The notes: generated from the letters alone by a model not told the origin. A stretch of 64,000 nt of DNA from Vulcanimicrobiota bacterium (GCA_019637395.1 JAHBVR010000002.1:69495-133494); one strand, 5' to 3'; shown: positions 3,178 through 40,588, numbered from the stretch's first letter. A program made the numbers and translations.

Positions 3178-3765
3178 GTGGCTAAACCTCGGAAAGCCAT
3201 CGAAGCTCGGTTTCGACGCGGCAGCAATTTTCTCATCCTGATCGGCCTGCTTTCAGCGCTCTGCAATAGTCTGCTCTATTTCGGTTTCACCTGGAAGCCC
3301 GTGACTATCTTCTGTCTGGCCATTCCAGTGGTATTGGATACGGTGGTGCGCGTAGTCGATCCCCGTCTGTGGGGCCAGGAGCTACATTATTACTGCTATA
3401 TTTTTGGCCTGATTCTCTCCGGTCTCTTCGTCTTGTTGGGCATGGCCTCCAAGTTCACTTCGCACACGGGCACTTTTTTCAAGCTCGGTTCTTTCATGCA
3501 CGGCTTGAAACGGTTGGGCAGCTGGGCCGGCGGAGCGCAATTGATGGGGTCTCGCCTCTTTTATTTCGTCGGTATCGTGCTCTATATTCTCGATGGTGTG
3601 CTGGCGCTGGTGATGGAAAATTTCCTGCGCGCCAATTTCGACCAGTTGCGTATCATGGTTTTGATGAACCTGGGCTTTCACTGTTTCGTGCTGGTGTTTT
3701 TGCTACACGGCTTCGTGGCCGGATTGGAATCTGAGGCGGCCGCCAGTCCGCCCGCCAATGCTTGA
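3178..3765 (+). CDS. Hypothetical polytopic membrane protein
   Basis: AGGAGG at 3164-3169 lies 8 nt before the in-frame GTG at 3178. At least five hydrophobic helices; no recognisable motif. Confidence 0.5.
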   Translation: MAKPRKAIEARFRRGSNFLILIGLLSALCNSLLYFGFTWKPVTIFCLAIPVVLDTVVRVVDPRLWGQELHYYCYIFGLILSGLFVLLGMASKFTSHTGTFFKLGSFMHGLKRLGSWAGGAQLMGSRLFYFVGIVLYILDGVLALVMENFLRANFDQLRIMVLMNLGFHCFVLVFLLHGFVAGLESEAAASPPANA

Positions 3766-11029: not shown

Positions 11030-11684
11030 GTTCGGGGGTTTTCGGGGCCAGCAGGCGGCAGGCCAGCCAGCACAGTCCCACCACCAGCGCGTCGGCCACC
11101 AGCACGTAAAAAGGCCAGGGACCGAGGTAGTCGAGCGGTGAGCCGGCTGGCGGCTTGAGCATCAGGTAACCGTAATTCCAGTTGAACAGGTAATCCAATC
11201 CGCCCACCAGCAAAATCCACAGTTGCAGGCCCCAGGCCGCGCCTTTCCAGGAGTCGCGGCTCAGCCGATAGCCCTGGCCGCCCTGCAGGTGGGCCAGCAC
11301 CACGAAGATCAGGCCGTGTCCCCAGAAGAATTCGAAGTAGCGGTAGTGGGGAAAATCATGGGGCAGATCGGGAGTGATCAGGGCCCAGATGCTGCTGGTC
11401 CATGAGAGCAGATGGATGCACTCGAAAGTGATCTGACTGCGCCGCTCACAGAGCAGGTAACAGGCCGCGAAAAGAATGAAGTCGCACAGGTGGAGCGGCA
11501 GGCAGGTGGCCAACGAGAGCTGGCTCCAGCGCCAACTGTAGGCGATCACCATATAAGCGATCAAATTGAGCAGCAGAAAGCGGTCGATCGCTTTCCGCGA
11601 CTGCCTTCCCCAGCGGCTCAGCAGCAGGCAAGCCAGCCAGATTCCGGCCAGCCCGGCCAGGTGCGTCAACCCAAACCAGCTCAT
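11016..11684 (-). CDS. Hypothetical integral membrane protein (about 6 TM helices)
   Basis: Likely start is the internal Met (MSWFGLTHLAGLAG...) at 11684; the longer ORF-track N-terminus runs into the REP-like repeat. Multiple hydrophobic segments. Confidence 0.5.
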   Translation of the reverse strand: MSWFGLTHLAGLAGIWLACLLLSRWGRQSRKAIDRFLLLNLIAYMVIAYSWRWSQLSLATCLPLHLCDFILFAACYLLCERRSQITFECIHLLSWTSSIWALITPDLPHDFPHYRYFEFFWGHGLIFVVLAHLQGGQGYRLSRDSWKGAAWGLQLWILLVGGLDYLFNWNYGYLMLKPPAGSPLDYLGPWPFYVLVADALVVGLCWLACRLLAPKTPEPIPL

Positions 11685-11724
11685 GCCCCGACCTTCGATT
11701 CTTTTCCTTTGGCAACCTCCGGTT

Positions 11725-11805
11725 TCCGGCCTGCCACAGGTGATGGCCCCTGGGTCTGGCCGCCACGGATGGTGTGTCTTGCCGACCACAGGTGGTGGCA
11801 GCCCC
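11725..11805. repeat. REP-like palindromic intergenic element, copy A (core GCCGCCACGGATGGTGTGTCTTGCCGACCACAGGTGGTGG)
   Basis: Shares the ACCAC-RG-GTGGT palindromic core and flanks with the elements at 15686-15925 and 46209-46325. Confidence 0.7.
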
Positions 11806-11843
11806 GGGCAGGACACCCCTTTCCTGATCGGAAAGGGCTATCC

Positions 11844-12551
11844 ATGGATATTCAGCGCAGAAGCTTTTTGCAGGGCCTGGCCAGCCTCGGCCTGGCCGCC
11901 ACCTTGCCGACGCTGGCCCAGGCCGCGGCCGCTCCCGGATTCACCGTACCTGACCTGGGCTACGGTTACAATTCTCTCGAGCCGGTGATCGACACGCTCA
12001 CCATGCAAATTCATCACGACAAACACCATGCCGCCTACGTAAAGAACTTGAACGAGGCCATCGCCAAGAACCCGGGCCCATGGAGCAACTGGACAGTGGA
12101 GCAACTGCTGACAGGCCTTTCGGAGTTACCCCTGTCGCTGCAGTTGCCAGTGCGTAATAACGGCGGCGGCCACTATAATCACAGCTTGTTTTGGAAATGG
12201 ATCGGTCCGCCCAACACCTCGAATGTTCCTGGCGACTTGAAGAGCGCTCTGGAAGACAAGTTCGGTTCCTGGCAGAAATTTCAGGAACGCTTTCAGGAAG
12301 CGGCCATGACCCGCTTCGGCAGCGGTTGGGCCTGGCTGGTCCTGGAAAAAGGTGGGAACCTGGCGGTGCGCTCGACCGCCAATCAGGATTGCCCGCTGCT
12401 GGAAGGTCAGACGCCCCTTTTGGGGTTGGATGTCTGGGAACACGCCTACTATTTAAAATACCAGAATATGCGCAAAGACTATGTGGACAATTTCTGGAAG
12501 ATCGTGCGTTGGGAAGAAGTCGGGCGCCGCTGGCGCGAAGCCAGGGCTTAG
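11844..12551 (+). CDS. Fe/Mn-family superoxide dismutase with a Tat signal peptide
   Basis: MDIQRRSFLQGLASLGLAATLPTLAQA (twin-arginine motif) followed by the Fe/Mn-SOD signatures HHDKHHAAYV and DVWEHAYYL. Confidence 0.85.
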   Translation: MDIQRRSFLQGLASLGLAATLPTLAQAAAAPGFTVPDLGYGYNSLEPVIDTLTMQIHHDKHHAAYVKNLNEAIAKNPGPWSNWTVEQLLTGLSELPLSLQLPVRNNGGGHYNHSLFWKWIGPPNTSNVPGDLKSALEDKFGSWQKFQERFQEAAMTRFGSGWAWLVLEKGGNLAVRSTANQDCPLLEGQTPLLGLDVWEHAYYLKYQNMRKDYVDNFWKIVRWEEVGRRWREARA

Positions 12552-25388: not shown

Positions 25389-26846
25389 ATGGAACCGTCC
25401 CTCGATCAGGTGATCCAGACTTTGCAGGAGCTGCGCGCTCGCTTGCAGGCCAGTCATCTGCCGATGATGTATTTTGAAAGCGATGAGCGGGGATGCTTGC
25501 TGCGGCTTGAGGGAGAGGTGGAGCTCTTGCTCGGTTCCCCGGCCACGGTCTGGCTCGGGAAACGTCTGGAGAGCCTGTGGCAAAGCGGGCCTTGGGAAAC
25601 TTCTCCGGCCTCTCTACACAACCAGGTGGTGACCCGTGAGGAAACCCGGCAGCGATTCTGGGTCCGTCTGGCCGACAGCCAGGCGGGTTACCGGGGAGTG
25701 CTGCTGGATTGCAGCCAGCAGCAGGTTCACGACCTGGAAGCCGGCCAGTTGCTGCTCACTCTGCAGCAGCAGCAAAAGCAACTGTCCGAACTGGAATTGG
25801 CGGTCCGCCAGCGGCAGGCTTTCGCGCTGGTCTTCAGCCGCGAGGTCCGCACCCTGGTGCACCGGATGCTCGGTCTGCTGGAAATGGTGCGCCACAAACC
25901 TCAGCCTCAGAGTTTGGACGGGCTGCAAGTCAGCCTGGAACATCTGCTGGCGCTCTCCGGCCCCCTGCAGGACGCGCTCGGGCCGGCCTGGACCGTCGAG
26001 CCGCAGCCGGTCGAGTTCGACCTTCACCAGACGGTGGCCCAGGTGGCCGCCTGGCTGAATTCGGAGGCCCGCGCCAAGGTGATCGAGATCCATTGCACCG
26101 TCTCGGACTCTATTCCGCGGCGTCTTTTGGGCGACGTGGTCAAGCTTCGCCAGATTTTGCTCCAGTTGTTGGATAACGCGGTCAAATTCACGGCCGGCGA
26201 CGTTATTGTGGATGTATCCGGCAGTTCGGAAGTGCTATTTTGCATCCAGGATACCGGGCCTGGCATGTCGGCCGCCAAGATCGAGTCGCTGTTTCAGGGT
26301 TCCCTGCTCTCGGGCGATCTGCCCACCACCGGATTGGGCATCAAGTTGGCTCGCCATCTGGTCGAGCTGCTGAGGGGCAAGATCTGGGTGGACTCTCAGC
26401 CGGAGGTGGGCACGTCCTTCTATTTCAGTTTGAACTTCGCCACCCAGGGCCCGGCCCCGGTGCTTTCGGCCCCGCCGGAGAGCGGGCGCCTGCGCGTGTT
26501 GCTGGCCGAAGATGACGCCGTCTGCCAGAAAGTCGCCCTGCGCATTCTGAACTCCATGGGTCACCGGGTCGACATCGTCTCCAACGGTCTTGACGTGCTC
26601 GAGGTTTTACAGCGAGGGGTCTACGACGTGGTGTTGCTTGATGTGGAAATGCCTGCGCTGGACGGCCTGGAAACAGCCCGCCAGATCCACCGGCGCTTCA
26701 CGCCGGCTCCGTATTTGATCGCGCTTACAGCCGGCAATTCGGCGGCCGATCGGCGTAAGGTGATGCTGGCCGGAATGCAGGATTTTCTGGCCAAGCCGCT
26801 ACGCGCCGAGGAATTAGCCGACGCACTGACGCAGATCCATTTATGA
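25389..26846 (+). CDS. Hybrid sensor histidine kinase with a C-terminal receiver domain
   Basis: HATPase N/G boxes (LLDNAVKFT, QDTGPGM, GLGIKLARHLVELL) plus a REC domain (RVLLAEDDAV...LLDVEMPALDG...KP). Confidence 0.75.
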   Translation: MEPSLDQVIQTLQELRARLQASHLPMMYFESDERGCLLRLEGEVELLLGSPATVWLGKRLESLWQSGPWETSPASLHNQVVTREETRQRFWVRLADSQAGYRGVLLDCSQQQVHDLEAGQLLLTLQQQQKQLSELELAVRQRQAFALVFSREVRTLVHRMLGLLEMVRHKPQPQSLDGLQVSLEHLLALSGPLQDALGPAWTVEPQPVEFDLHQTVAQVAAWLNSEARAKVIEIHCTVSDSIPRRLLGDVVKLRQILLQLLDNAVKFTAGDVIVDVSGSSEVLFCIQDTGPGMSAAKIESLFQGSLLSGDLPTTGLGIKLARHLVELLRGKIWVDSQPEVGTSFYFSLNFATQGPAPVLSAPPESGRLRVLLAEDDAVCQKVALRILNSMGHRVDIVSNGLDVLEVLQRGVYDVVLLDVEMPALDGLETARQIHRRFTPAPYLIALTAGNSAADRRKVMLAGMQDFLAKPLRAEELADALTQIHL

Positions 26847-27244
26847 CGCTCGTGCAAGATATCATGACCAAGGGCTGCTACTGCATGCGCCAGGAGCAAA
26901 CTCTGGCCGAGATTCTGCACGAATTCGACAAGCGCGCCATTTCGGGTGGTCCGGTGGTGGACGCTGACGGAATTGTCATCGGTCACCTCTCGCGCACCGG
27001 CGTCTCCCGCCATTTTGCTAAAGCCGGCCAGATCGACCAGAATCTAACGGTGAGGGAGGTCATGGAGACGTTTGCCTTTCAGGTCTACGCCGACGACTCG
27101 GTGAAGTCGCTCTTGGAAACGATGTTGGCCAGTCGTATTCATCGAATGATCGTGACCGATGAGGACGGGCGCCCGATAGGAATCGTGACCTCGATGGATC
27201 TCATGGGCCTTCTCTACGACCGGCTGAGCGCTTCAGACGGATAA
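26843..27244 (+). CDS. CBS-pair domain protein
   Basis: Two CBS motifs (VQDIMTK...GGPVVDADGIVIGHLS and VREVME...RMIVTDEDGRPIGIVTSMDL). ATGA overlap with the kinase stop. Confidence 0.7.
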   Translation: MTLVQDIMTKGCYCMRQEQTLAEILHEFDKRAISGGPVVDADGIVIGHLSRTGVSRHFAKAGQIDQNLTVREVMETFAFQVYADDSVKSLLETMLASRIHRMIVTDEDGRPIGIVTSMDLMGLLYDRLSASDG

Positions 27245-27856
27245 ACTCTGGCCGTTGTGCGCGGGGCCCAGGCCGAGAATGAGCCGGGCCGCCTTATCCA
27301 CCCACTGGTCCGGAGTAGGAAAAAAGCGCGCTCCTTCGCCCAGCGCCTGACGCAACATATCGGTCTGGAGCGTGCCCGGATCCAGTGCCACCGCCGCCAT
27401 CGTCTTGGGCAATTCCGAGGCCAGCGTCTTGACCAGGCCTTCCACCGCCCATTTTGAGGTGCAGTAAGGACCCATGCGCGGCGAGGTGGTGCGCCCGTAG
27501 CCGGAGCTGATGCCGATGAGCACACCCCGGGTCATGTGGGGCAGCACGGCTCGGAAAAGGTAGAACACCCCTTTCACGTTCACGTCGATGAGCCGCGAAA
27601 AATCTTCCGGTTCGACCTGGGCCAGAGGCGCGGGCGAAAGCACGGTGGCGGCATTGGCGAGGACCAGATCGGGCGCACCGTAGTGATGCACGACGCTCTC
27701 GACCCAGTCGCGGACCTGTCCGAAGTCGCTTGCGTCCACCCGGTTGGGTGGGGCGGAAGCCTGAGAAAAGCCCCAGACCTGGTGGCCTTGCTCGCTGAAG
27801 TAGTCGGTCAGGGCGGCGCCCAGGCCGCGCCGATTACCGCTGATCAGAATGCGCAT
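27233..27856 (-). CDS. Short-chain dehydrogenase/reductase (SDR) family protein
   Basis: N-terminal ILISGNRRGLG Rossmann motif and catalytic Y...K (GPYCTSKWAVEGL). Confidence 0.7.
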   Translation of the reverse strand: MRILISGNRRGLGAALTDYFSEQGHQVWGFSQASAPPNRVDASDFGQVRDWVESVVHHYGAPDLVLANAATVLSPAPLAQVEPEDFSRLIDVNVKGVFYLFRAVLPHMTRGVLIGISSGYGRTTSPRMGPYCTSKWAVEGLVKTLASELPKTMAAVALDPGTLQTDMLRQALGEGARFFPTPDQWVDKAARLILGLGPAHNGQSLSV

Positions 27857-28787
27857 AGAATTTCTCCAAGAATTGTTCCCATTGATTCGGATCCAGGACG
27901 GCGCCTGCCGATTGGGGGTGACCGCGCACGATCAGGCCCAATTGACCGAGGATTTTGATGGCGTTCAGCGCTCCCCTGCTGCGCGCCGAGATATGCACCT
28001 CGGCCACGTCGCTGCGCCGATTGGCCGCCAGCACCACATAGTCGGCCAGACGCGCTTTCCAGATCTGGGCGACCACGGACTGGATGGGGCAGTCGCTGGA
28101 AAATTGCACCAGGGCAATCCGGCCGCGTTTGATGGCCGGGACCTGTTTGGCCTGGCCCAGGCGTTTGCGTACCTTGCGCTGGCAGTCGCGTAGATAGACC
28201 ATGGAGGCATGGTCAGAACGTAACATTTGCGCGGGAGAGTCGTGATGAGTCAGGGCTGACAGGGCCTGCTCGCAGTCAGCACCGGCTCGATGAGCACTGT
28301 TGACCAGCGAGGTGAGCTGGCGTAAAGGATTGAGCCCCCAACGCCGTATTTGATTCTGCAATATTTCGCCGGCGGCGGAGTCGCCCAGGTCGCTGAGGAT
28401 TCCCAGGGCGGCAATCCAGGCGTGCGGGCCGTCGCTTTCGCCCCATAGCAGTTCATGGGTCAGCCAGGCGGTACAGCGGTCGGGACGATGCAGCAGGAGG
28501 GTATCCGGTGGCGGTTGCCGCGGCAGGGGGTGGTGGTCGATGACGACCGTCGGCAGTTGCCAGGGAAAGCGTTCCTCGGGGCAACTCAGGTCCAGCAGGT
28601 AGACCAATCGGGCCGGATTTTGCAGAACGGGTAGCCACTGGCGGGCGCTGACCACCTGGGTGGTCCCACCCAGGCGCAGCTTCCAGAGCGCCGCCGCGCA
28701 CAGCCCGTCGGCGTCAAAGTCATGCAGCGCCGTCGGTGGACCGGGGTAACGCCGAATCCACTCTTCCAGGAAGTCTTTCAGGGCCAC
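27834..28787 (-). CDS. DHH-family phosphoesterase (NrnA/RecJ-like DHH-DHHA1)
   Basis: VVIDHH motif and the C-terminal GHPQSAG (DHHA1 GGH-like motif). Overlaps the upstream gene by 10 bp and the downstream SDR by 23 bp. Confidence 0.6.
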   Translation of the reverse strand: MALKDFLEEWIRRYPGPPTALHDFDADGLCAAALWKLRLGGTTQVVSARQWLPVLQNPARLVYLLDLSCPEERFPWQLPTVVIDHHPLPRQPPPDTLLLHRPDRCTAWLTHELLWGESDGPHAWIAALGILSDLGDSAAGEILQNQIRRWGLNPLRQLTSLVNSAHRAGADCEQALSALTHHDSPAQMLRSDHASMVYLRDCQRKVRKRLGQAKQVPAIKRGRIALVQFSSDCPIQSVVAQIWKARLADYVVLAANRRSDVAEVHISARSRGALNAIKILGQLGLIVRGHPQSAGAVLDPNQWEQFLEKFYAHSDQR

Positions 28788-30022
28788 AATTTGGTGACGG
28801 TCATCGGCGTGAGGCCGGCGGGAGGACGAATTTTCCAGAGCGAGCCCCGTTCGGTGGTCAGGAAAAATAGGCTGCCATAGCGGTCAGTGGTCATCCCCGA
28901 AGGTAAGTCCTGGCGCAAATTCTCATCAAGCGTTCCCAACAGCGACCACTCGCCGGTGCTGTCCACAAAGCGGTAGAGCCGGGCCCGATCATGCACATAA
29001 ACGGCCCAGCCGTGGCTATCCATAGCCAGTCCAATGGGAGAACCCAGCCCCAGGCTGGCGGGCGGGCGGAAACGCCGGCGGTGCCAATTTCCCAGCGGGC
29101 CGGCGCTCTCCAGCTCGGTAGGCGAATAGTGGGCCGAGGCCTCGGGACTGACGAGTTTGCGCAGACATTGGTAGTCCACGTCAGCCACCCAGATCAAGCT
29201 CATGGCCGGGTCACAAACGATCCCGGCCGGTCGGCCCAGCGGAGGATTCTGAGGTTTGCTGACGCTGGTGCTGTTCCAGGCGCTGCCATCGCTGAACCAG
29301 AGGCCGCGATTGGTGAGGTCGGCCGCCACCAGGCGACCGGTGCCCTGATCGGTGGCCATACCGCTAAACAGGGCCAGGGCGCGCTGGGAATCTACCGCTG
29401 CTACGGGCGCCGCCAGCGCTGCCCCCCAGGTCCCGGGCGCGGGCAAGGTCTCTCGATAGGATACGGGGGACTCTTTGCTACCTCCGCGCCAGAAGAAATT
29501 CGTGCCGGGGCGCCCGGCCAGGGCGCCCCCGCGGCGAGCGTCGCTGACCGCGCCCAGGTTGGTGACGGTGGAGGTCTGGTCGTCCCAGCCCATTAAGTCC
29601 GTTCCGTTGACCCAGACCACTTTGTGGGAGTATTCATCGCTGATCACACCGCTGAAGGCGATGGCCGGGTCGGATGTCAGGCAAAAGGCCCTGGCCAGCG
29701 CCCCGCTGGGCGCCACCGCCTCCACTTGCAGAACGTAAAGCCCGTCCTCATAAGGAGTCAGGCTCAGGGTGGTATTGAAACCCGGATTAGGGTCTGTTTC
29801 CTGGCGCAAGCCGGTGGCGAGTTCCTCGAACGGAACGGTTTTGGCTTCTTCCAGGCGGCGGTGGGCCAGCATGGTGCATTTGGAGTAATCGATGGAGCGC
29901 CGGGCGTGACGCTGACCAGAAGCAAATAGAGACATTAAATAGAGGCAAACGAGCAAAAGCAGCAGCAGCGAAACTTGCACTTCCAACAAGGACAGACCCT
30001 GACGCCAGCCGCGATTCCCCAT
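28778..30022 (-). CDS. Prepilin-type (class III) N-terminal leader protein with a large beta-propeller/NHL-like periplasmic domain
   Basis: MGNRGWRQG|LSLLEVQVSLLLLLLV: short basic leader ending in Gly, Glu at +5, then a hydrophobic helix. Followed by about 380 aa of beta-rich repeats. Confidence 0.5.
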   Translation of the reverse strand: MGNRGWRQGLSLLEVQVSLLLLLLVCLYLMSLFASGQRHARRSIDYSKCTMLAHRRLEEAKTVPFEELATGLRQETDPNPGFNTTLSLTPYEDGLYVLQVEAVAPSGALARAFCLTSDPAIAFSGVISDEYSHKVVWVNGTDLMGWDDQTSTVTNLGAVSDARRGGALAGRPGTNFFWRGGSKESPVSYRETLPAPGTWGAALAAPVAAVDSQRALALFSGMATDQGTGRLVAADLTNRGLWFSDGSAWNSTSVSKPQNPPLGRPAGIVCDPAMSLIWVADVDYQCLRKLVSPEASAHYSPTELESAGPLGNWHRRRFRPPASLGLGSPIGLAMDSHGWAVYVHDRARLYRFVDSTGEWSLLGTLDENLRQDLPSGMTTDRYGSLFFLTTERGSLWKIRPPAGLTPMTVTKLWP

Positions 30023-30065
30023 TCTCTTAGGTTGCTTCCACATTCCGCAAAAACCTGCATAAAAG

Positions 30066-30095
30066 GAAGAGGCCCGAATAGCTCCGGGCCTCTTC
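30066..30095 (-). terminator. Rho-independent terminator downstream of the HU gene
   Basis: Perfect 11-bp stem GAAGAGGCCCG-N8-CGGGCCTCTTC, followed on the minus strand by CTTTTAT. Confidence 0.7.
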
Positions 30096-30120
30096 CTTTC
30101 AGGTTCATCCGAGAAAACGG

Positions 30121-30408
30121 TTATTTATCACAACTCTCTTTGAGCGTCTTGCCGGGCTTGAAAACGGGGTAGTTCTTGGCGGGAACCTTAATCGTTTTGC
30201 CGGTGGCCGGGTTGCGAGCTTCGCGCTCTTCGCGCTTGCGGGCGAAGAAAGATCCGAAGCCGGGGATCACGAGCTTGTCTCCCGCCTTCAGTTGATTTAC
30301 GATCAGGCCTTTTTCTGCGTCGAACAGCGCATCCACAACATCCGCGGCCTTGGCCTGGGACAGGTCGGTATGCTTGGCCAATTCTTTGATCAACTCGGTT
30401 TTGTTCAC
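30121..30408 (-). CDS. hup: HU/IHF-family nucleoid-associated DNA-binding protein
   Basis: GTG start (rc of 30406-30408) preceded by GGGAGA. MNKTELIKELAK...KLVIPGFGSFFARKREEREARNPATGKTIKVPAKNYPVFKPGK matches the HU fold. Confidence 0.8.
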   Translation of the reverse strand: MNKTELIKELAKHTDLSQAKAADVVDALFDAEKGLIVNQLKAGDKLVIPGFGSFFARKREEREARNPATGKTIKVPAKNYPVFKPGKTLKESCDK

Positions 30409-30547
30409 GGGGGGATTCTCCCTTTCAACGAAATACTTGGTGTTGCCCACGTAACACCGGTGCAGGCGCTCAGGTTAAAGCAACCTCCAGGCAACTCCTG
30501 CTCCCTGGTGGTTTGTTAACAAATGTAGCCAAATTGTTAACAGAAAG

Positions 30548-31348
30548 GTGCGACTGTTCTCCGTGCGAATAGCAAAGCCCGTGAATCAGGTCGTTTGCGC
30601 ACCTCCATGGGGCTTTTCCCGGCTGCCTTTGAAAAGCCCCCCGGGACACTGGCTGCATGTGCTCGAGGCCGGGCAATCCGAGGCCCCCACCCTCTTGCTG
30701 CTTCACGGGGCAGCCGGCAGTTGGCACAATTTTCGTCTTCAAATTGAATGGCTGCAGCATAGTTATCGTATCGTTTCGTTAGACTTGCGCGGTCACGGAT
30801 TGTCTCCCTGGCCCGGCACCAGTCACATCGAGGACTTTGTGCAAGACGTTCTGGGAGTGGTGGAAGCCCGCGTTCCCGGGCCTTTCGCCATCGTCGGCCA
30901 TTCCTTTGGCGGTTGCCTGGCCACCATGGTAGCCGACCGCCTTGGGTCGCGCGTGCGGGGCTTGACGCTGCTCAACACCGCCGGGGAAATCCCGCGCGGG
31001 CCGCTGTTCCGCTTCCTCAAATTGTTTGCCCGCTTCTCCCATTGGGTGGCCCAGATTGAGCCTTACTGGATTTCCTGTCACGGCCGGGTGGCCCACGACC
31101 TGCTCTGGGACACCTTGCCGGCCTGGAATACCTGGAATCTGTACCCTGGAATTCAGGTGCCCACACTGGTCTTGGCGGGACGGCGAGATTCGCTGATCCC
31201 CTGGCGGTCCAGCCTGCGCATGGCCGCCATGATCCCTGGAGCCATGTCCCACCTGATCGACGACGGCGCCCACGTCTGCATGTGGGAAAGCCCCGACCTG
31301 TTGCGCTCCCACATGGAAGCCTGGCTGGCCCGCCTGGACTGGAAATAA
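30548..31348 (+). CDS. Alpha/beta-fold hydrolase
   Basis: LLLLHGAAGSW, nucleophile elbow GHSFGG, and a C-terminal His motif. Confidence 0.7.
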   Translation: MRLFSVRIAKPVNQVVCAPPWGFSRLPLKSPPGHWLHVLEAGQSEAPTLLLLHGAAGSWHNFRLQIEWLQHSYRIVSLDLRGHGLSPWPGTSHIEDFVQDVLGVVEARVPGPFAIVGHSFGGCLATMVADRLGSRVRGLTLLNTAGEIPRGPLFRFLKLFARFSHWVAQIEPYWISCHGRVAHDLLWDTLPAWNTWNLYPGIQVPTLVLAGRRDSLIPWRSSLRMAAMIPGAMSHLIDDGAHVCMWESPDLLRSHMEAWLARLDWK

Positions 31349-33352: not shown

Positions 33353-36300
33353 ATGATTTTATGGGAGACCTACTTCGAATCGGCTCAGCAAGCGCTGGCT
33401 GAGGGCGACGACGCCAAGGCGGCCGAGCTTTTTGCTTCCGCTTTCGAGGAGGTCGAGTCCGAAAGTGTGCGCGATGATCGCTGGTTGCGTACGTTGTTGG
33501 GCTGGTCCAAAAGTCTGACCCGCCAGGGCAATTACGACCAGGCCACGGAAGTGCTCCAGGTTGACCCGGCGGAGCTGGCCGCCTGTCCAGCGGACTTACA
33601 ATTGGATTTGCAGGCCACCCTGGCCCAACTACAGCAGGCCAAGGGGGACAGCGCCGCCGAGCTGAACAGTTGGGCCAATTGGTACGGGGCTCTGAACGGA
33701 GCCAGTGAAGCCCGCTTGCCTCACCTGCGCCGGGCCGTGCAGTTGGCTCAAGAATTGCAGGCGGACTGGATGAGCGGGGCGCGGGAGCTGCTCTACAGTT
33801 GGTCGGTGGAGTTGTTGGGACCCGATCACCCGGAGACCTTGGCCGCGGCTCAGCACCAGCTCGATAGTTACCTGGCCGAAAAGGATTGGGCTCGCGCTGA
33901 GCCGCTGCTGCGTGCTCAACTGGCGCTGAACGAGAAAGATCGGTCCGCCTGGCTCAAGACGCAAGGTTTATTAGCTCTGGCCCTGCGCTCTCAGGGCAAA
34001 GCCGAAGCGGCCTGGCTCGCTTATCGAGAAATTTTGCGCGCTCAGCCGCTGGAACACGAAGAGCATTTGGAGGTGCTTCGTTGGGCCTATGAAGAGGCTC
34101 AGGGCGAGCAGGCTCAGGAAGTCGCGCTGGACTATCTGATTCGACTCACCCAGCCGCTGCCGGGCCATCTCGACCTCTACGACTATGTTATGGTGCTGGC
34201 CGAACCGGCGGATCAACTGCGCTTGCAGCAGGCTCGACTGGGCTGGGCCGAGGCCCTTCAGACCAGCCTGGAGATCCAGTTGGACTGGACCCACGAATTG
34301 GCGCTGGCTCTCGAGGCGCAGGGGCAGCCCGATCAGGCCAATTTTTTCTGGGATCGAATTTTGCTGGAGGGCCTTCCCAAGAAGGCGTTGGCCGACGCTC
34401 ACCTGCGCGCCGCGCGCAAGGCCGCCGCTCAGGGGCAGCCGGCCGGAGACCACTACCGGGCAGGCCTGATGGGGCGTCTGGAGCAGTCCCAGTGGGAAGA
34501 GTGCTGGCTGGAGGACGCCCTGCATTGGGCCCGGCTCGAGTTTGAGCAGAACAATCAGGTCACCGCCCTGGCGATTCTTACGCCGCTCCTCGGGCAGCTC
34601 GAAAAACGCTCCTTGGAAGGCACGGCTCCCTACTGTGAGGCTCTCTTTATGCGGGCTCGACTGGCCTACGCGCAAGAGCAGCCCACGGGCCAGGCGGACC
34701 TGGAGCAAGCTTTCGAACTCTGGCAGGCGGTCGAACAGCCGGCGGACCTGGGAGTCAAGATTTCCACCTTCGCTGTCGAACAGAGCATCGCGGCTCGTCA
34801 GCAGACGGACTACCAGCGCTGGGCTGCGCGTCTGGAAAAGCTGGGTGTGGAACCTCCGCCCTTCGAACGCGGCTTCGATGAGGAGGCGATGCAGGCTCTG
34901 CATCACTCGGGAGAGTGGGTCCGGCTGGAACAAGAACTGCGCGAAGTTCTGCCCAAGCTGGGAGCGGAAAGCCCGGAGGAGCATTTTGTCGCCTACCTGT
35001 GGCTGGCCGAGAGCTTGGAGCAGCAGGGACGCTGGGAGGAGGCCTTGGAATTCCGCCAGCAATCTCAGCCCACTTTGGTGGAGCGGCTGGGTGCTGCCCA
35101 CGCGCTGGTTTTACGCGGTCAAATGCAGTTGGGTCAGTGCCTCAATGCCTTGAGCCGCTTCGCTGAAGGCGAACGGGTCCTGGCCCAGTCGGTGCGCGCC
35201 CATGAGAAGGCCCTGGGGGCTGACAGCCTGGCCGTGGGCCGGGTATTGCTCGCTTTGGCCGAGAGTTTCCGGCTGCAAGGCAAGGATAACCTGATGGAGG
35301 CGGTTTCCGGCCGGGCTGTCGGCTTGCTGGAAAAACACTTGCCGGTGGGACACCCGGACCGTTTGCAGGCCAAGCGGGACCTGGTGCAGTGGATGATGGA
35401 TCAGGGCCGCTTTGGCGAAGCCCGCCAACAACTCCAGTTTATGGAGCAAGAAGAAGTTCAGGCTTTTGGCGCGGATCACCCCGAATTAGCGGTGACTCTC
35501 TCGCAATGGGCCAGCCTGGAAACGGCCGAGGGCGACTACGCGGCAGCCGAGGTCCACTACCGGCGCTCGTTGGACCTGTTCGAACGCGGTCTCGGGGATG
35601 CCCACCCGAACGTGGCCGCCACTCTCAACAACCTGGGACAGAACCTTTACCGACAGGCTCACTATGCTAAAGCGGCCAGCGTGCTGGAGCGGGCTTTGCA
35701 GATTTTTGACGCCCACGATGCCGGGCGCGTCTCGACCATGGTCAACCTGGGACTGGTCTGGCAGGCTCAACAAGAACATGCTAAAGCCCAACAATGGTTG
35801 GAAGAAGCCTTGCGGCTGAGCCAGGAGTGGTTGGGCGAAGACGACCTGGAGGCCGCCTTCTGCTGCTTTACGCTGGCGGAAGTGCTGGCTCATCAGGGAC
35901 AAATGGCGGAAGCCCGCCAGTTTGCGCAGAGGGCTCTGGACATTCGCGAAAGACGCCTGGGAGCGTTGCATCCGGAAACCTCCACCAGCCAGGCTCAGGT
36001 GAGTAATCTGCTGATGCGTGACGGCCGGGAGGCCGACGCCATCCCCCTGGTGGAAGGCTCCCTGAAAATTCAGGCTCAGGCCCTCGGGGAAGACCATCCC
36101 GAATTGATCCCTACCTATTCAACCTTGGGCCGACTCTACATGGCCGATCAGCAGTGGGATAAGGCGGAGGAGACCCTGCTCAAGGCCATTGGTCTGATCC
36201 ATCGATCGACCGCCCAGGTCAGCGCCGAACTGGCTCAGAGAGTGGCCGAGTTGGGCGAACTTCGGGCTTCTCAAGGAGATTTGGAGCAGGCCATCGGGTT

Positions 36301-39300
36301 CTCGGCCAAAGCGGTGGAGATTCTGGTGGAGGCGTTGGGAACTCAGCACGAGGCCACCGATCCGGTCATGCTCAGACTGGCCAAGCTCTACCTGCAGGCC
36401 GCCCGCTATAAAGAAGCCGAGGCTTGCTTCAAGCGGGTGCTGGACCAGCGCACCCAGCGCCTGGGCGGCGACGACCCTGGTGTGGCTCTGGTCTGGCTGG
36501 AACTGGCCGAACTCCAATTGGCCCAGAACCGCCAGGTGCTGGCCGAAACCTTGGGCAAAAAGGCCCTGGATCTGATTCAGCGACGCTTTGGTGAAGAGCA
36601 TGTGCAACTGCGTCCAGCTCTGGAATTCCTGGCCCGGCACGCCTCCCACCACGGCAACGAATCTCAGGTTGCGGCCTATGAGCAGCGACTGGCCGCTCTG
36701 GTGGAGCCGTCCCTCGAGGATACTCCCTCAACCACCACCTCGCCGGTCGTGGCCGTTCCCTTACCCGACACCGAAGGGCAGGCGACCGTCACGCCGGAGT
36801 CAGGCCCTTCTGAGGTCGAAGGAGAGACCGTTCCTGCAGAAGATGAGCCGTCCGTGGAGCCACCTTCCATTGAGGCGGAGGCTGTCCACCTCGAGACGCC
36901 GGCGCCTACCGAAAGGGACGCGCCCGCCGAGGCGGTTGTTGAAGTGGCCGTGCCTGACGAGGCTGCCGGCCTGGTCGAGGATGTGCCTTCGGTTTCGGAA
37001 GCCATCGAGGAATCTGGGGCAGAGCCGGCGACCGCGGTCATGGCCGAGGCTGTTACCGAAACGGTTGCTGAAGCGGCGGTGGAACCCGTGGTTGCCGAGG
37101 CACCTGAGGTGGTGCCGGTGGTGCCTGAGCCGGAGCCGGAACCGCTCAGTCCGGAGGAACAGGCGGCCAGGGCGGCGCTCGAAAAGAACTGGGTTTATGT
37201 CAGGGAGTTGTTGACGCCGCTGGTCGCCGCGCGCAGCGGAGTGGACCTGGCCGAGATATTGCGCCGTCTGTCCCTGGCCGAGCGCCACCTGGGCAATCGC
37301 ACTCAGGCCGAGCGGCTGCTCTTGCAATCGATTACCTTGTGGTCTCAGGAATACGGTGAGAACCATCCGGAACTGGCCGAAAGCATGGGAGACCTGGCCG
37401 AGGTCAGTTTCGAGATGGGTAAGTTGGAGCAGGCGGAAGGCTTGCTGCGCCGGGCCACCGAGATTCAGGTTCGCCTGCACGGCACCGACCATGCCGCGAT
37501 GATTCCCTGGCTGTTGCGCCTGGGCCGGATCTATTTGCCCCACAAGGCCAGCCAGGCCCTGCCGCCGCTGCAACGGGCCCTGGGCTTGGCCCAGAGCCGC
37601 CTCAACGCTCAGGATCCGGTGCAGGCGGAGATTCTCTGGTCTCTGGCTCTGGCCCAAGAGCAGGCGGGTGACTTTGAGGAAGCCACGGTTCTCCTGCGCC
37701 GACGCCTGAGTTTTCCGGATGGCGAAGAAGCCCTCGAAGTCCAACTGAAGCTCGCCCAAATGCTGCTGCGGGCTGGACAAATCGAGGCGGCCACGCAGAT
37801 TCTGCATAAGTTGGAAGTGCACTTGCCGGTTCCCGGTCCCGAGATTGAGGAACAGGTAAAGGCGCTGGTGGGCAACATTCTGGTCTTGGAAGACCGCCTC
37901 GAGGAAGCCGAGCCGCGTTTGCTGGAGGCCCTGCAGATGCGCAGCCAGCGTCTCAGCACGCAGCATCCGGATTTGCGCCCCATCCTGTTCAATCTGGCCA
38001 AACTCTATAGCGCCCGCGAAGCTTACCAGCAGGTGGCTATTTTCGCCCAGCAGGCCCTGGAGTTAACCCCCGAAAGCGAGACCGAGACCAGGCTGCAGCT
38101 CTATTCTCAGTTGGCGCCCGCCCTGATGCACTTGGACCGGCACTCGGAAGCGGAGGTTCTGTATCGCACCTGGGCGGATTTGATCGTGGCCCAACAGGGG
38201 GAAAATCATCCGGCCCAACTGCCGGCCCTGCAAGCCCTTTCCAAGCTGCTGCAGCGCCGCGGCGACTCGATGGCGGCCCAAGAAATGCGCGAGCAGGCCT
38301 GGCAGATCCTCAGCCAGAGCCCGCAGGTCTCGGAAGCCGAGTTTCTGTTGCCTTTGGAGGACCTGGCCCGCGGCGCCATCGAGCAGGCTGCTTGGGATAA
38401 GGCTGAAGCCTGGCTCCGCCGCGCCTACGCCATCGCGGAGAAACAGGATGGACTGGCGGCGGCGCGCCTGGCTTATGCTCTGGGCGAAGTCTTCCGCTCG
38501 ACCGGCCGCCTGGCCGAAGCCGAGACCGCCATTCGCCGCTCGCTGGAATTCCGCCAGACGGCGCTGGGGGCCGAGCATGTGGAAACGCTCCGGTCCCTGC
38601 AGTCCCTGGCCGAGGTTTACTCGGCCCAGAATCGGTTTGAAGCTGCTCAATCAATGCTCAGCCGCTGTTTGGATGCGGGTAAGCAGACGTTGGGCGATCA
38701 GCATCCCGACCTGGCGGGTTTTCATCGCGCCCTGGGCGTACTCTGGTCCCACACCGGCCGGATGGACGAAGCCGAGAAGTCCTTGTTGGAGGCGCTCGCT
38801 CTGGTCGAGAATCTCTCCCCGCCCCATCCCGAACTGGTGCCTACCTTGGAAGCGCTCGGCCAATACTATCAACGCCTCGACCAGTTGGCCCAGGCCGCTC
38901 CCTTTTACAGTCGGGCTCTGGATTCAATGGAGCAGTCGTTGGGACCAAGCCATCTGGCCGTGGCCGATTCTCTGTTACAACTGGGCGAGTTACAGCAGCG
39001 TCAGGGGAATTTCGAGGAAGCCGAGAAGCTCTATCGCCGCTGTCTGGAGATTCGCAGTCAGAAACTGGCGGCGCAAAGCCCTCGTCTGGCTCAGGTCCGC
39101 CAGGTTCTGGCCCAACTGCTGCAAAAGCAGGGGCATACGGCTGCCGCCCGCGAGTTGTTCGAGCAGGCTCTGGCCGCTCTCTGGTCGGAACAAGGCGGTG
39201 AGAGTTCGCAGGTGGCGGAATGCCTCGAAGGTCTTGGGCTGCTGGAGTTGCAGCAGTCCCTTTATGCCGAATCGGAAGCTCGCCTGCAAAAGGCTCTGAC

Positions 39301-40588
39301 CATCCGGGAGAAGGAACCGGCTGACCGCCAGGGCCCCACCATGAATACCCACCAATTGCTGGCCCGCGTCTTTCTGGAAAGCCGCCGGCCCGAGATGGCC
39401 GAGCGCTCTCTGAAGCGAGCTCTGGAGATCGCCCAGAAAGCCTTCGGAGGAGACCGTCCTGAAGTAGCGGCCTGTCTCGAGCAGTTGGGTGGATTGTATT
39501 TGAGTCAGGGACGCTATGTGGCGGCCGAAGCCCTGTTTGATCGCGCCCTGGAAATACGCGACCGGAGCCAGCAGCCGCAGCATCCCGATTCGGGCTTTTG
39601 TTTGCTGGGTCTGGCTCAGATTTATCTGGCCCAGAATCAATTGACACAGGCCTGGCAAACGGCCGAGACGGCCAAGAAAATTTACGACGCGCTGCCCCAG
39701 CAGCCTAACCTGGATGGTGCCCAGGCTCTGTATCTGATGGCCGAAACGCTGCGCCTGCAGGGGCGCTTCAAGGAGTCCGAGGCGCTTTATCAGCGCTGCC
39801 TGGAGATTCGCAACAAGTTGTTGGGCAATGACCACCCCGAAGTGCAGCGCGGTTTGCACGGTCTGGGTGTGTCGCTGATGGATCAGGGCAAAGCTCCCCA
39901 GGCCGAGCGCATTTTTACCCACGCTCTGAGACTGCTGGAGGCCAAGTTGGGCAACGATCACCCCGATCTGGCCAACAGTCTGCACAGTTTGGGACTATTG
40001 CATCGCAGCCAGGGTCGCGGCGCCACCGCTGAACTGCATCTGAAACGAGCTTTGGAACTGCGCACCAAGGGATTGGGTAACGAGCACCCGGATCTGGCGG
40101 CCAGCTTGCAGGCCATGGCTCAGTTACATTTGGATCAGCGCAACGACCAGGCGGCTGAGGCGTTATTGAAACAGGCCTTGAGCATTCGAGAGAAGGCTTT
40201 GCGCGCCGATCACCCGGCTCTGTCCGCGCTGTTGCTCTTGCTGGCCGGTCTTTACAAATCGCAGGAGCGCTTTTCCGAGGCCGAGCCCCGCTTGAAGCGC
40301 GTGCTCGATCAGCGCGAAAAGTTGCTGGGCACCCATCACCCGGATACTGCCGCCATCCTTCAGGAACTGGGCGAACTCTATCTACTGAACGGCCAGCAAC
40401 AGCAGGCGGAAACCTTGCTCAAACGGGCCCTGGATATTTATGAAAAACGCCTGGGCCAGGAACATCCTACGATTTTGCCGTGCCTGCATCTGCTCTGGAA
40501 GGCTTACGACGCCCAAAAACGCACCCAGGAAGCGGCCGGCATCCGCTCGCGCATCCAACTCCTCGAAGTTACTCGCCCTGCTGGTTAA
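33353..40588 (+). CDS. Giant tetratricopeptide-repeat protein (2411 aa; KLC/TPR_12-type repeats throughout, central acidic P/E/V/A-rich linker)
   Basis: Dozens of LG..HP..A..L..LA.LY...GR..EAE.L..RAL.I.E..LG units. No Walker A or other enzymatic motif seen. Low-complexity segment at roughly 36700-37160. Confidence 0.85.
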   Translation: MILWETYFESAQQALAEGDDAKAAELFASAFEEVESESVRDDRWLRTLLGWSKSLTRQGNYDQATEVLQVDPAELAACPADLQLDLQATLAQLQQAKGDSAAELNSWANWYGALNGASEARLPHLRRAVQLAQELQADWMSGARELLYSWSVELLGPDHPETLAAAQHQLDSYLAEKDWARAEPLLRAQLALNEKDRSAWLKTQGLLALALRSQGKAEAAWLAYREILRAQPLEHEEHLEVLRWAYEEAQGEQAQEVALDYLIRLTQPLPGHLDLYDYVMVLAEPADQLRLQQARLGWAEALQTSLEIQLDWTHELALALEAQGQPDQANFFWDRILLEGLPKKALADAHLRAARKAAAQGQPAGDHYRAGLMGRLEQSQWEECWLEDALHWARLEFEQNNQVTALAILTPLLGQLEKRSLEGTAPYCEALFMRARLAYAQEQPTGQADLEQAFELWQAVEQPADLGVKISTFAVEQSIAARQQTDYQRWAARLEKLGVEPPPFERGFDEEAMQALHHSGEWVRLEQELREVLPKLGAESPEEHFVAYLWLAESLEQQGRWEEALEFRQQSQPTLVERLGAAHALVLRGQMQLGQCLNALSRFAEGERVLAQSVRAHEKALGADSLAVGRVLLALAESFRLQGKDNLMEAVSGRAVGLLEKHLPVGHPDRLQAKRDLVQWMMDQGRFGEARQQLQFMEQEEVQAFGADHPELAVTLSQWASLETAEGDYAAAEVHYRRSLDLFERGLGDAHPNVAATLNNLGQNLYRQAHYAKAASVLERALQIFDAHDAGRVSTMVNLGLVWQAQQEHAKAQQWLEEALRLSQEWLGEDDLEAAFCCFTLAEVLAHQGQMAEARQFAQRALDIRERRLGALHPETSTSQAQVSNLLMRDGREADAIPLVEGSLKIQAQALGEDHPELIPTYSTLGRLYMADQQWDKAEETLLKAIGLIHRSTAQVSAELAQRVAELGELRASQGDLEQAIGFSAKAVEILVEALGTQHEATDPVMLRLAKLYLQAARYKEAEACFKRVLDQRTQRLGGDDPGVALVWLELAELQLAQNRQVLAETLGKKALDLIQRRFGEEHVQLRPALEFLARHASHHGNESQVAAYEQRLAALVEPSLEDTPSTTTSPVVAVPLPDTEGQATVTPESGPSEVEGETVPAEDEPSVEPPSIEAEAVHLETPAPTERDAPAEAVVEVAVPDEAAGLVEDVPSVSEAIEESGAEPATAVMAEAVTETVAEAAVEPVVAEAPEVVPVVPEPEPEPLSPEEQAARAALEKNWVYVRELLTPLVAARSGVDLAEILRRLSLAERHLGNRTQAERLLLQSITLWSQEYGENHPELAESMGDLAEVSFEMGKLEQAEGLLRRATEIQVRLHGTDHAAMIPWLLRLGRIYLPHKASQALPPLQRALGLAQSRLNAQDPVQAEILWSLALAQEQAGDFEEATVLLRRRLSFPDGEEALEVQLKLAQMLLRAGQIEAATQILHKLEVHLPVPGPEIEEQVKALVGNILVLEDRLEEAEPRLLEALQMRSQRLSTQHPDLRPILFNLAKLYSAREAYQQVAIFAQQALELTPESETETRLQLYSQLAPALMHLDRHSEAEVLYRTWADLIVAQQGENHPAQLPALQALSKLLQRRGDSMAAQEMREQAWQILSQSPQVSEAEFLLPLEDLARGAIEQAAWDKAEAWLRRAYAIAEKQDGLAAARLAYALGEVFRSTGRLAEAETAIRRSLEFRQTALGAEHVETLRSLQSLAEVYSAQNRFEAAQSMLSRCLDAGKQTLGDQHPDLAGFHRALGVLWSHTGRMDEAEKSLLEALALVENLSPPHPELVPTLEALGQYYQRLDQLAQAAPFYSRALDSMEQSLGPSHLAVADSLLQLGELQQRQGNFEEAEKLYRRCLEIRSQKLAAQSPRLAQVRQVLAQLLQKQGHTAAARELFEQALAALWSEQGGESSQVAECLEGLGLLELQQSLYAESEARLQKALTIREKEPADRQGPTMNTHQLLARVFLESRRPEMAERSLKRALEIAQKAFGGDRPEVAACLEQLGGLYLSQGRYVAAEALFDRALEIRDRSQQPQHPDSGFCLLGLAQIYLAQNQLTQAWQTAETAKKIYDALPQQPNLDGAQALYLMAETLRLQGRFKESEALYQRCLEIRNKLLGNDHPEVQRGLHGLGVSLMDQGKAPQAERIFTHALRLLEAKLGNDHPDLANSLHSLGLLHRSQGRGATAELHLKRALELRTKGLGNEHPDLAASLQAMAQLHLDQRNDQAAEALLKQALSIREKALRADHPALSALLLLLAGLYKSQERFSEAEPRLKRVLDQREKLLGTHHPDTAAILQELGELYLLNGQQQQAETLLKRALDIYEKRLGQEHPTILPCLHLLWKAYDAQKRTQEAAGIRSRIQLLEVTRPAG

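Follow-up and report, generated by a model that had tools for sequence, protein, structure and literature searches.

A probable modular minor type IV pilin with an NHL propeller head, linked in one Vulcanimicrobiota/Eremiobacterota clade to a DHH phosphoesterase and an SDR oxidoreductase

Modular pilins, in which a pilin module is joined to a bulky domain with no specific tie to pilus biology, have been defined as a class and are widespread; the architecture IPR012902 + NHLx3 appears once in Dataset S1 of the survey that defined them (Raynaud et al. 2021, PMC8179133). Modular minor pilins include S. sanguinis PilB, with a vWA domain, and PilC, with a lectin domain, as well as ETEC CofB and T. 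thermophilus ComZ. Other described systems that bear on the present locus are the GspI-GspJ-GspK tip set (EpsI/J/K; PilV/W/X) and the PilY1/PilC tip adhesins, and NHL repeats occur in some PilY1 architectures (PMC8179133). Among DHH-family enzymes, MtPAPP is the pAp phosphatase of Methanothermococcus thermolithotrophicus (PDB 8a8k; PMC10322725). With respect to the organisms concerned, the cultured Eremiobacterota strain V. alpinus has pilMDTC and produces type IV pili (PMC9758169).

The locus described here belongs to a stretch of 64,000 nucleotides from a Vulcanimicrobiota bacterium, called the window below. It comprises three successively overlapping genes on the minus strand (lengths from ORF translation) and a hairpin ahead of them:

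30057..30100, minus strand: strong GC-rich hairpin followed by a T-run, read from the sequence
28778..30022, minus strand: gene 1, probable modular minor pilin (pilin-NHL), 414 aa counted from MGNRGWRQG
27834..28787, minus strand: gene 2, predicted cytoplasmic stand-alone DHH/DHHA1 phosphoesterase, 317 aa, GTG start
27233..27856, minus strand: gene 3, short classical SDR oxidoreductase, 207 aa, ATG start

A first-pass annotation of this DNA had reported three genes overlapping by 10 and 23 bp, and both the coordinates and the overlaps were recovered when re-derived from the ORFs. The GTG start of the DHH gene lies within GTGGCCCTGA and produces the 10-bp overlap with the pilin stop; the SDR gene, preceded by a GGAG Shine-Dalgarno sequence, overlaps the DHH stop by 23 bp and is convergent with a CBS gene, with a 12-bp overlap. 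An alternative upstream ATG at 30043 would extend gene 1 to 421 aa. The hairpin directly follows the HU gene and precedes the pilin start by about 15-35 nt, leaving almost no room for a dedicated pilin promoter. A simple scan of 26800..30700 found no sigma-70-like promoter for the trio, and the same scan overlooked the evident terminator hairpin of HU. Rfam detected neither a riboswitch nor any other RNA element in the whole window. The three genes are probably co-transcribed, possibly when transcription of the HU gene reads through, and their overlaps probably couple their translation as well. PADLOC returned no match for the pilin-NHL, DHH, SDR or CBS proteins, and the reading of the trio as a defence system was dropped on that result.

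The proposal that gene 1 encodes a prepilin-type protein with a class III signal is well founded. The protein starts with the short, positively charged leader MGNRGWRQG, which is followed by LSLLEVQVSLLLLLLVCLYLMSLF, so that Gly stands at -1, the hydrophobic Leu at +1 and Glu at +5, and about 22 hydrophobic residues come next, where some 20 are typical of prepilins. A glycine followed by LSLLEV and a hydrophobic stretch is the sole prepilin-like motif in the six frames of the window. Both Gly-1 and Glu+5 are kept, down to 36% identity, wherever a family member has enough of its N-terminus to show them (four gene calls are truncated at this end). Since the motif is conserved in these complete N-termini, it is not a chance match. 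Pfam N_methyl matches 9 of 16 family N-termini (best E 2.6e-5); the copy in the window has no N_methyl match at E<=10, nor does it reach TIGR02532.

The AF2 model of gene 1 (pLDDT 87.9) contains a long N-terminal helix, a four-stranded pilin sheet and a six-bladed propeller. The alpha1 helix (aa 12-62) packs on an antiparallel sheet (aa 71-117; strands 71-74, 83-91, 95-103 and 109-117), as in the pilin fold. When this N-terminal module was compared with the PDB by Foldseek, the T. thermophilus competence pilin 6qvf ranked first and a match to EpsI (2ret_C) had a TMt of 0.57, all at weak E-values of 0.04-0.3. Weak XpsI and ComGE HMM matches cover aa 15-112. A sequence profile of the module found nothing meaningful in the PDB; the N-terminal helix is usually missing from solved structures of pilins, which may account for this result.

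The rest of the protein, described in the first-pass annotation as a beta-rich repeat body, is a six-bladed NHL-type beta-propeller at aa ~126-413, the AF2 secondary structure showing six blades, the number expected of NHL-repeat propellers with blades of four strands. NHL is one of the identities that had been suggested for this body (PilY1, GspK, NHL or lectin), and a profile search matched the NHL domains of TRIM3/TRIM2 (E 4.8e-7 to 3e-6, 4.8e-7 being the best value against TRIM2/3) as well as Pizza designer propellers. Pfam gave no match for the window copy; the family members P0028 and P0069 carry precomputed Pfam NHL/SGL matches, that of P0028 being marked as faint in the locus table. 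A Foldseek search of the PDB with the full model returned only generic WD40, NHL and SMP30 propellers and no functional lead.

Gene 1 thus combines a pilin module (aa 1-~120) with a propeller that is not specific to pili. It resembles the known modular minor pilins in its short class III signal, small pilin module and bulky domain, as well as in its size, about 45 kDa compared with about 15 kDa for a major pilin. Unlike them, its grafted module is a complete six-bladed NHL propeller, its family is known from sequence in uncultured lineages only, and in this clade the gene stands apart from other pilin genes. PilY1/PilC and gene 1 would both place a beta-propeller at the pilus tip, if the tip position proposed for gene 1 is correct. 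However, PilY1 is a non-pilin with a Sec signal and an IPR008707 propeller, whereas gene 1 carries its own pilin module. The PilC/PilY1 propeller domain (IPR008707) gave no Pfam match in gene 1 at E<=0.1, and a PilY1-like reading was rejected for this reason and because gene 1 is itself a pilin.

The class of pilin is indicated by distant homologues. At 33-38% identity, pilin-NHL homologues form the last of three genes in a minor-pilin cassette, in the order GspK-like gene (~131 aa), prepilin gene (~191-198 aa) and pilin-NHL gene, which is common to L016, L017 and L019. The GspK-like genes gave E-values of 4.5e-5 and 4.6e-8, and the prepilin motifs of the cassettes are GHTVIEV, GLTLPEV and AHTIVEL. 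Behind the L019 cassette comes a GspF/PilC-like gene (E 1e-76), and farther along is one for a PilT/PilU-family ATPase, which scores 374 bits (cut-off, 319). The presence of this putative retraction ATPase points to a T4aP-like system and not to a T2SS. In L005 a T2SSF gene lies one gene away from the pilin-NHL homologue. On grounds of sequence and gene order, these loci settle the assignment of gene 1 as a minor pilin.

The cassette recalls the GspI-GspJ-GspK set in having three genes: a GspK-like N-terminus that lacks Glu5, a prepilin of ~190 aa and a GspI/ComGE-like pilin module. Gene 1 shares with GspI/EpsI the weak XpsI match and the structural match to EpsI. In contrast to GspI-J-K, the large extra domain of this family sits on the GspI-like subunit and not on GspK, and none of the HMM scores comes near the family cut-offs.

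The first-pass annotation had also noted that no pilus-assembly, secretin or ATPase gene lies nearby, and this is true of the 64-kb window, in which about 45 ORFs, all but a few small ones, were compared with Pfam. Neither a prepilin peptidase nor a partner minor pilin was seen in it. The lack of pilus genes within 64 kb leads to a second reading of gene 1, namely that it is no longer a pilin but a filament-independent periplasmic or surface NHL protein, anchored by its N-terminus as a type II membrane or pseudopilin-like protein and acting as a sensor, binding protein or enzyme. The failure of the window copy to match the N_methyl HMM and a hydrophobic segment long enough for a membrane anchor agree with such a protein, and some NHL/SGL propellers, lactonases for instance, are enzymes, SMP30 proteins being among the Foldseek matches. 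Nevertheless, hardly any variation is seen inside the clade at Gly-1, at Glu+5 and along all of alpha1, as would be expected if cleavage and filament packing were still under selection, and the homologues described above are clearly cassette minor pilins. Moreover, type IV filament systems commonly have orphan minor-pilin genes that lie apart from those for assembly. We therefore regard the loss of pilin function as rather unlikely, and a minor pilin remains the preferred identity of gene 1.

Gene 2 was correctly assigned to the DHH-DHHA1 proteins, all the catalytic motifs being present: D23/D25/D27 (motif I, DxD), D66 (II), DHH at 84-86 (III), D133 (IV) and, in DHHA1, GH at 289-290 followed by SAG are invariant or nearly so in 24 sequences. 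Both Pfam domains score below their gathering thresholds (DHH, 18.1 bits against 28.1; DHHA1, 23.5 against 25.9). In a profile search of the PDB, MtPAPP (8a8k) is first, with E 3.4e-13 over the full length, followed by archaeal RecJ/GAN (4e-7) and then by a c-di-AMP phosphodiesterase (6e-4). No NrnA or GdpP HMM matches the protein; together with the PDB ranking, this led us to reject an NrnA or GdpP identity, and the earlier emphasis on NrnA and c-di-AMP phosphodiesterases gives way to an archaeal pAp phosphatase as the nearest solved relative, with RecJ-type nucleases after it. The RecJ equivalog TIGR00644 reaches only 13.5 bits, far from its cut-off of 396.9.

As in MtPAPP and RecJ/NrnA-type enzymes, gene 2 encodes a stand-alone protein made of DHH, linker and DHHA1 (about 320-335 aa in this group) with conserved metal-binding motifs. 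It differs from MtPAPP in belonging to a bacterial subfamily, in having a RecJ-like GH..SAG DHHA1 motif and in its lack of a sulfate-assimilation context. The protein resembles the RecJ core or the archaeal pAp phosphatase, and it is probably either a Mn-dependent phosphatase of pAp or short oligonucleotides or a RecJ-like ssDNA exonuclease.

Gene 3 had been called an SDR, and a Pfam adh_short score of 105 bits (cut-off, 26.6) and the catalytic tetrad bear this out. The translation contains the glycine motif SGNRRGLG (TGxxxGxG in classical SDRs), ANAA in the position of NNAG, and the N-S-Y-K tetrad as N93, S117/118 and Y131xxxK135. Many NCBIfam SDR models match, none at an equivalog cut-off, and the relatives in the PDB are generic SDRs. 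From its motifs, the product is predicted to be a short NAD(P)-dependent enzyme.

The similarity of gene 2 to RecJ could suggest DNA uptake, with an NHL minor pilin in a competence-type pilus and a RecJ-like DHH nuclease processing incoming or displaced ssDNA. The weak ComGE match and the Thermus competence pilin as best structural match of the pilin module speak for it, as do the JGI label of the DHH-protein relatives ("single-stranded-DNA-specific exonuclease") and the position of distant DHH homologues beside an ATP-dependent DNA ligase and Fpg, or beside RarA. However, the similarities on the pilin side are all weak and generic to minor pilins, the closest solved relative of the DHH protein is a pAp phosphatase, and its RecJ equivalog score is the low one given above. 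In addition, ComEA, ComEC and DprA were not seen in the window, and the SDR would have no role. Altogether, a function in DNA uptake appears highly improbable.

The pilin-DHH-SDR trio was found in only one Vulcanimicrobiota/Eremiobacterota clade (56-100% identity). A scan of genome contigs that mapped the family recovered close relatives in only five GTDB species genomes, and the trio is present in 5/5; these and a JGI metagenome locus (L008) make up six related loci in which the trio is contiguous, at 56-85% identity. The gene order is thus conserved in every close relative examined; its absence from all relatives would have spoken against the first-pass annotation. Across three independent flank rearrangements the trio is unbroken: the region upstream differs from that of the window in L006 and L012, L008 is devoid of the CBS and HK genes, and both L008 and L013 have insertions after HU. 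This integrity is compatible with selection for co-expression.

Such conservation could mean that the trio is a true functional module, the DHH protein (through turnover of pAp, pGpG/nanoRNA or c-di-AMP) and the SDR being co-regulated with the surface NHL pilin or needed for it; for instance, a nucleotide second messenger might control the display of a pilus-tip adhesin. Besides the contiguity of the trio in all six loci despite their rearranged flanks, the overlapping frames leave no internal promoter or terminator, the match lists of pilin-NHL and DHH have many contigs in common, and the adjoining CBS-pair protein has weak CbpB-like similarity. Most of the six loci, however, share wider synteny with the window, so that conservation is not specific to the trio, and overlap between adjacent genes is routine in this genome (5/11 junctions in the 15-kb locus L001). 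The linkage is also missing outside the clade: L016, L017 and L019, where pilin-NHL lies in the cassette, and L005 have no DHH or SDR neighbour. Likewise, those DHH homologues examined in Chloroflexota, Acidobacteriota and cyanobacteria, which belong to a set present in several phyla at ~30-35% identity, have no linkage to pilin-NHL; an aldo-keto reductase is found among their neighbours in addition to the DNA-related genes already mentioned. Furthermore, signal peptides are lacking in the DHH and SDR proteins, whereas the pilin has its place of action outside the cell, and a pAp phosphatase and RecJ stand nearer to the DHH protein than GdpP or Pde2 do. A functional module is accordingly unlikely, and the earlier pairing of a pilin with a nucleotide phosphoesterase as one module is not favoured.

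A stronger form of this idea is that a tip minor pilin was recruited into a dedicated operon with the DHH and SDR genes, the display of the NHL head being mechanistically tied to cytoplasmic nucleotide turnover. The coupling could involve pAp, nanoRNA, breakdown products of cyclic dinucleotides or the processing of ssDNA imported by the pilus. We consider this recruitment quite doubtful; if true, it would couple a pilin to an enzyme in a way that has not been described in any type IV filament.

Because the trio is limited to one clade, the cassette homologues lack DHH and SDR genes and the neighbours of distant DHH genes are different, the trio is best read as a lineage-specific operon derived from a relocated pilin gene, and not as a functional pilin-nucleotide module. 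Gene 1 is likely a modular minor type IV pilin whose gene has moved away from the pilus genes, its linkage to DHH and SDR being incidental and confined to one lineage. The preprotein would insert into the cytoplasmic membrane and be cut by a prepilin peptidase (PilD) after Gly9, leaving Leu at +1 and Glu at +5. The hydrophobic alpha1 and the small GspI/ComGE-like sheet would then seat the product in a type IV filament, probably at the tip together with GspK/PilX-like and GspJ/PilW-like minor pilins, where the C-terminal NHL propeller could be displayed as a ligand-binding head, adhesin or receptor. In this clade the gene would have been split from its minor-pilin cassette and now stands directly upstream of two unrelated cytoplasmic enzymes, most likely by an accident of genome rearrangement that was fixed in one lineage. 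Since the linkage is most likely incidental, no function of the DHH or SDR protein should be inferred from it.

Gene 1 adds one more example, of modest novelty, to a known design, pilins with NHL repeats having already been catalogued, and is not a new system. If the favoured explanation is right, the catalogue of modular pilins gains a well-supported example of an NHL head on a GspI-like minor pilin, and a conserved three-gene minor-pilin cassette is defined in poorly known uncultured lineages. It would also mean that a tip pilin gene can persist as an orphan far from its machinery, and it could guide work on what the pili of Eremiobacterota bind.

The three genes of the trio lie tightly packed on the minus strand, with the overlaps reported in the first-pass annotation, whose identification of the three proteins was largely right.

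28778..30022, minus strand: gene 1, pilin-NHL gene (prepilin-type N-terminus and NHL propeller), 414 aa, start MGNRGWRQG
27834..28787, minus strand: gene 2, DHH/DHHA1 phosphoesterase, 317 aa, GTG start
27233..27856, minus strand: gene 3, SDR, 207 aa, ATG start
30057..30100, minus strand: strong, GC-rich hairpin and T-run at the end of the HU gene (30121..30408), read from the sequence

The GTG start of gene 2 is found within GTGGCCCTGA and overlaps gene 1 by 10 bp, while gene 3 is preceded by a GGAG Shine-Dalgarno sequence and overlaps gene 2 by 23 bp. Translation from an alternative in-frame ATG at 30043 would lengthen the gene 1 product by 7 residues; in the family alignment, homologues start mostly at the position equivalent to 30022. 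The HU hairpin, which was not picked up by a simple terminator scan, lies only ~15-35 nt before the pilin-like start codon. No sigma-70-like promoter for the trio was found by a simple promoter scan, and no Rfam elements were found. The trio is likely transcribed by read-through from HU or from a promoter overlapping the terminator.

The prepilin signature of gene 1 (Gly at -1, a hydrophobic residue at +1, Glu at +5 and then a hydrophobic helix) is kept in the family alignment down to members of 36% identity, in variants such as GLSLLEV, GLSLVEL and GFSFLET. Pfam N_methyl is matched by nine of 16 family N-termini, the window copy being unmatched. The AlphaFold2 model built from the family alignment is confident (pLDDT 87.9) and predicts the following regions of the gene 1 product:

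residues 12-62: alpha-helix
residues 71-117: four-stranded antiparallel sheet
residues ~126-413: six four-stranded blades

In a profile comparison, the family aligns with the TRIM3 and TRIM2 NHL domains (E 4.8e-7 to 3e-6) and with the NHL-derived 'Pizza' designer propellers, and some members carry precomputed NHL/SGL Pfam matches. A separate model of the N-terminal 124 residues (pLDDT 84.8) has as its best Foldseek PDB match the Thermus thermophilus competence pilin 6qvf, and it also resembles the T2SS pseudopilin EpsI (TMt 0.57), the E-values being weak in both cases (0.04-0.3). Weak NCBIfam matches to XpsI (GspI) and ComGE cover residues 15-112.

This design corresponds to the 'modular pilins' described by Raynaud et al. 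2021 (PMC8179133), which comprise more than 1,200 proteins in 264 architectures. One protein combining a prepilin motif with NHLx3 is already listed in Dataset S1 of that work. A cultured Eremiobacterota strain has pilMDTC and produces type IV pili (PMC9758169).

Identical proteins are encoded in MAGs that carry the label Candidatus Eremiobacteraeota / Vulcanimicrobiota, such as GCA_026129085.1. A word-indexed search returned only 28 relatives of gene 1 (36-100% identity), and a pattern scan detected close relatives in 5 of 185,579 species genomes, labelled Vulcanimicrobiota (two), only 'bacterium' (two) and Burkholderiales (one). An exhaustive profile search added ~40 full-length representatives of ~400 aa (E 1e-132 to ~1e-15); its other matches were mostly NHL-repeat proteins aligned over the propeller only. 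The locus labelled 'uncultured Burkholderiales bacterium' (L013, CAZYPN010000014.1) has the full HU / pilin-NHL / DHH / SDR / CBS / HK / GlgX order, and all other labelled relatives are Vulcanimicrobiota/Eremiobacterota or unclassified 'bacterium'. The Burkholderiales label probably reflects misclassification or faulty binning.

A relaxed prepilin regular expression, applied to the 64-kb window in all six frames, gave a single N-terminal match with a hydrophobic segment behind it, namely gene 1. Comparison of ~45 window ORFs with Pfam revealed no pilus, secretin or T2SS/T4P ATPase proteins, so that the earlier description of gene 1 as a lone prepilin-type protein holds within the 64-kb window. 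The scanned ORFs include PTS components, an ABC transporter, GlgX, a hybrid histidine kinase, HU, a Dam-like methylase, TsaD/TsaB, FtsY, MutS2 and a class A PBP. The window also contains a single 2,411-aa ORF (33353..40588, plus strand) composed almost wholly of TPR_12/NPHP3-type TPR repeats; this ORF is also conserved in L001, a close relative. Ankyrin repeats are uncommon in bacteria; two large ankyrin-repeat proteins are encoded here (713..2242, minus; 3758..5560, plus), the second fused to TPR repeats. At 11412..12551 (plus), the longest ORF with Fe/Mn superoxide dismutase domains has 379 aa. The true start of this gene is probably internal, since the domains begin at residue ~177 and the genes called in relatives encode 237-241 aa.

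Pilus genes do appear beside distant gene 1 homologues. P0028 (locus L016), P0069 (L017) and P0070 (L019), with ~33-36% identity, share one arrangement of three overlapping genes:

first gene: ~131-136 aa, N-terminus G(M/I)AL..., without Glu5
second gene: ~191-198 aa, canonical prepilin motif (GHTVIEV, GLTLPEV, AHTIVEL)
third gene: pilin-NHL gene

The first product matches the GspK N-terminus (E 4.5e-5 and 4.6e-8). In L019 a GspF/PilC-like platform gene (E 1e-76) comes directly after the cassette, and a PilT/PilU-family ATPase gene (374 bits; cut-off 319.1) lies further on. In L005, a T2SSF gene is one gene away from the pilin-NHL homologue. No DHH or SDR gene adjoins the pilin in any of these four loci. 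Because of these neighbourhoods, the gene 1 family is predicted to be a minor pilin of a type IV filament, most probably belonging to a GspI/J/K-like tip complex in which the propeller is grafted on a GspI-like subunit. Conserved proteins of ~235-250 aa without Pfam match (L019, 4247..4996; L016, 7397..8152 and 8162..8881) flank the cassette; their N-terminal segment is hydrophobic and signal-like, KGSPN[IV] motifs recur in them, and they may serve the cassette's pilus system as additional components or substrates.

Gene 2 contains all DHH-family metal-binding motifs (DxD, D, DHH, D) and the DHHA1 GH..SAG motif, invariant or nearly so across 24 homologues; its Pfam DHH and DHHA1 scores fall just under the gathering thresholds. 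The best match of its family profile, over the full length, is MtPAPP of Methanothermococcus thermolithotrophicus (8a8k, E 3.4e-13), a pAp-specific, Mn-stimulated DHH-family phosphatase of RecJ/NrnA-like fold (PMC10322725). Archaeal and bacterial RecJ-type nucleases come next, and a c-di-AMP phosphodiesterase (E 6e-4) and TmPDE (E 9e-3) are much weaker. Gene 2 falls well short of the RecJ equivalog cut-off (13.5 bits vs 396.9). Gene 2 lacks a signal peptide, and its product should therefore be cytoplasmic. By profile search the subfamily is widespread at ~30-35% identity, distant matches being labelled Chloroflexia, Anaerolineae, Thermoanaerobaculia and Leptolyngbyaceae. The DHH homologues in three further loci have these unrelated neighbours:

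L015: RarA/MgsA and CoaE
L022: aldo-keto reductase and amidohydrolase
L023: Fpg and ATP-dependent DNA ligase

Neither a pilin nor an SDR gene adjoins them. In L023 (3248..6089) the homologue overlaps the ligase gene, itself located after fpg, and in L015 (6495..9089) it follows the RarA/MgsA gene, which could point to DNA repair as the role of the wider subfamily.

Gene 3 encodes a short classical SDR with a complete catalytic tetrad (Pfam adh_short, 105 bits); its NCBIfam scores all stay below the equivalog cut-offs, and its PDB relatives are only generic. A stand-alone CBS-pair gene (26843..27244, plus, 133 aa) converges on it with a 12-bp overlap, and overlaps by 4 bp the stop of the hybrid histidine kinase/response regulator gene that lies upstream of it. 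The similarity of the CBS-pair protein to the c-di-AMP-binding CbpB is weak and sub-threshold (E 1.9e-5, 24.6 bits vs a cut-off of 125).

Conservation of the gene order was confirmed in relatives: the trio is contiguous in all clade loci examined (L008, L009, L010, L011, L012 and L013; pilin identity 56-85%). It also stays intact through three rearrangements of its flanks: the upstream region differs in L006/L012 (one genome), L008 has lost its CBS and HK genes, and insertions separate HU from the pilin gene in both L008 and L013. This is mild evidence of selection on co-expression and could speak for a true functional coupling of the three products; the overlap of the reading frames also makes separation of the genes mechanically unlikely. 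Several observations weigh against a functional module: synteny extends from the thioesterase gene to glgX over most of that stretch, overlaps are common (5 of 11 junctions in L001), linkage is lost outside the clade for both the pilin-NHL and the DHH partners, and the products work in different compartments. For these reasons functional coupling seems unlikely, the undescribed pilin-phosphoesterase module suggested by the first-pass annotation is not supported, and the trio is better read, with reasonable confidence, as a lineage-specific operon. This operon probably originated by relocation of the pilin-NHL gene, or retention of a copy of it, beside a DHH-SDR pair. The most interesting outcome is the conserved GspK-like / prepilin / pilin-NHL cassette of uncultured lineages, together with its orphan copy in the Vulcanimicrobiota/Eremiobacterota clade.
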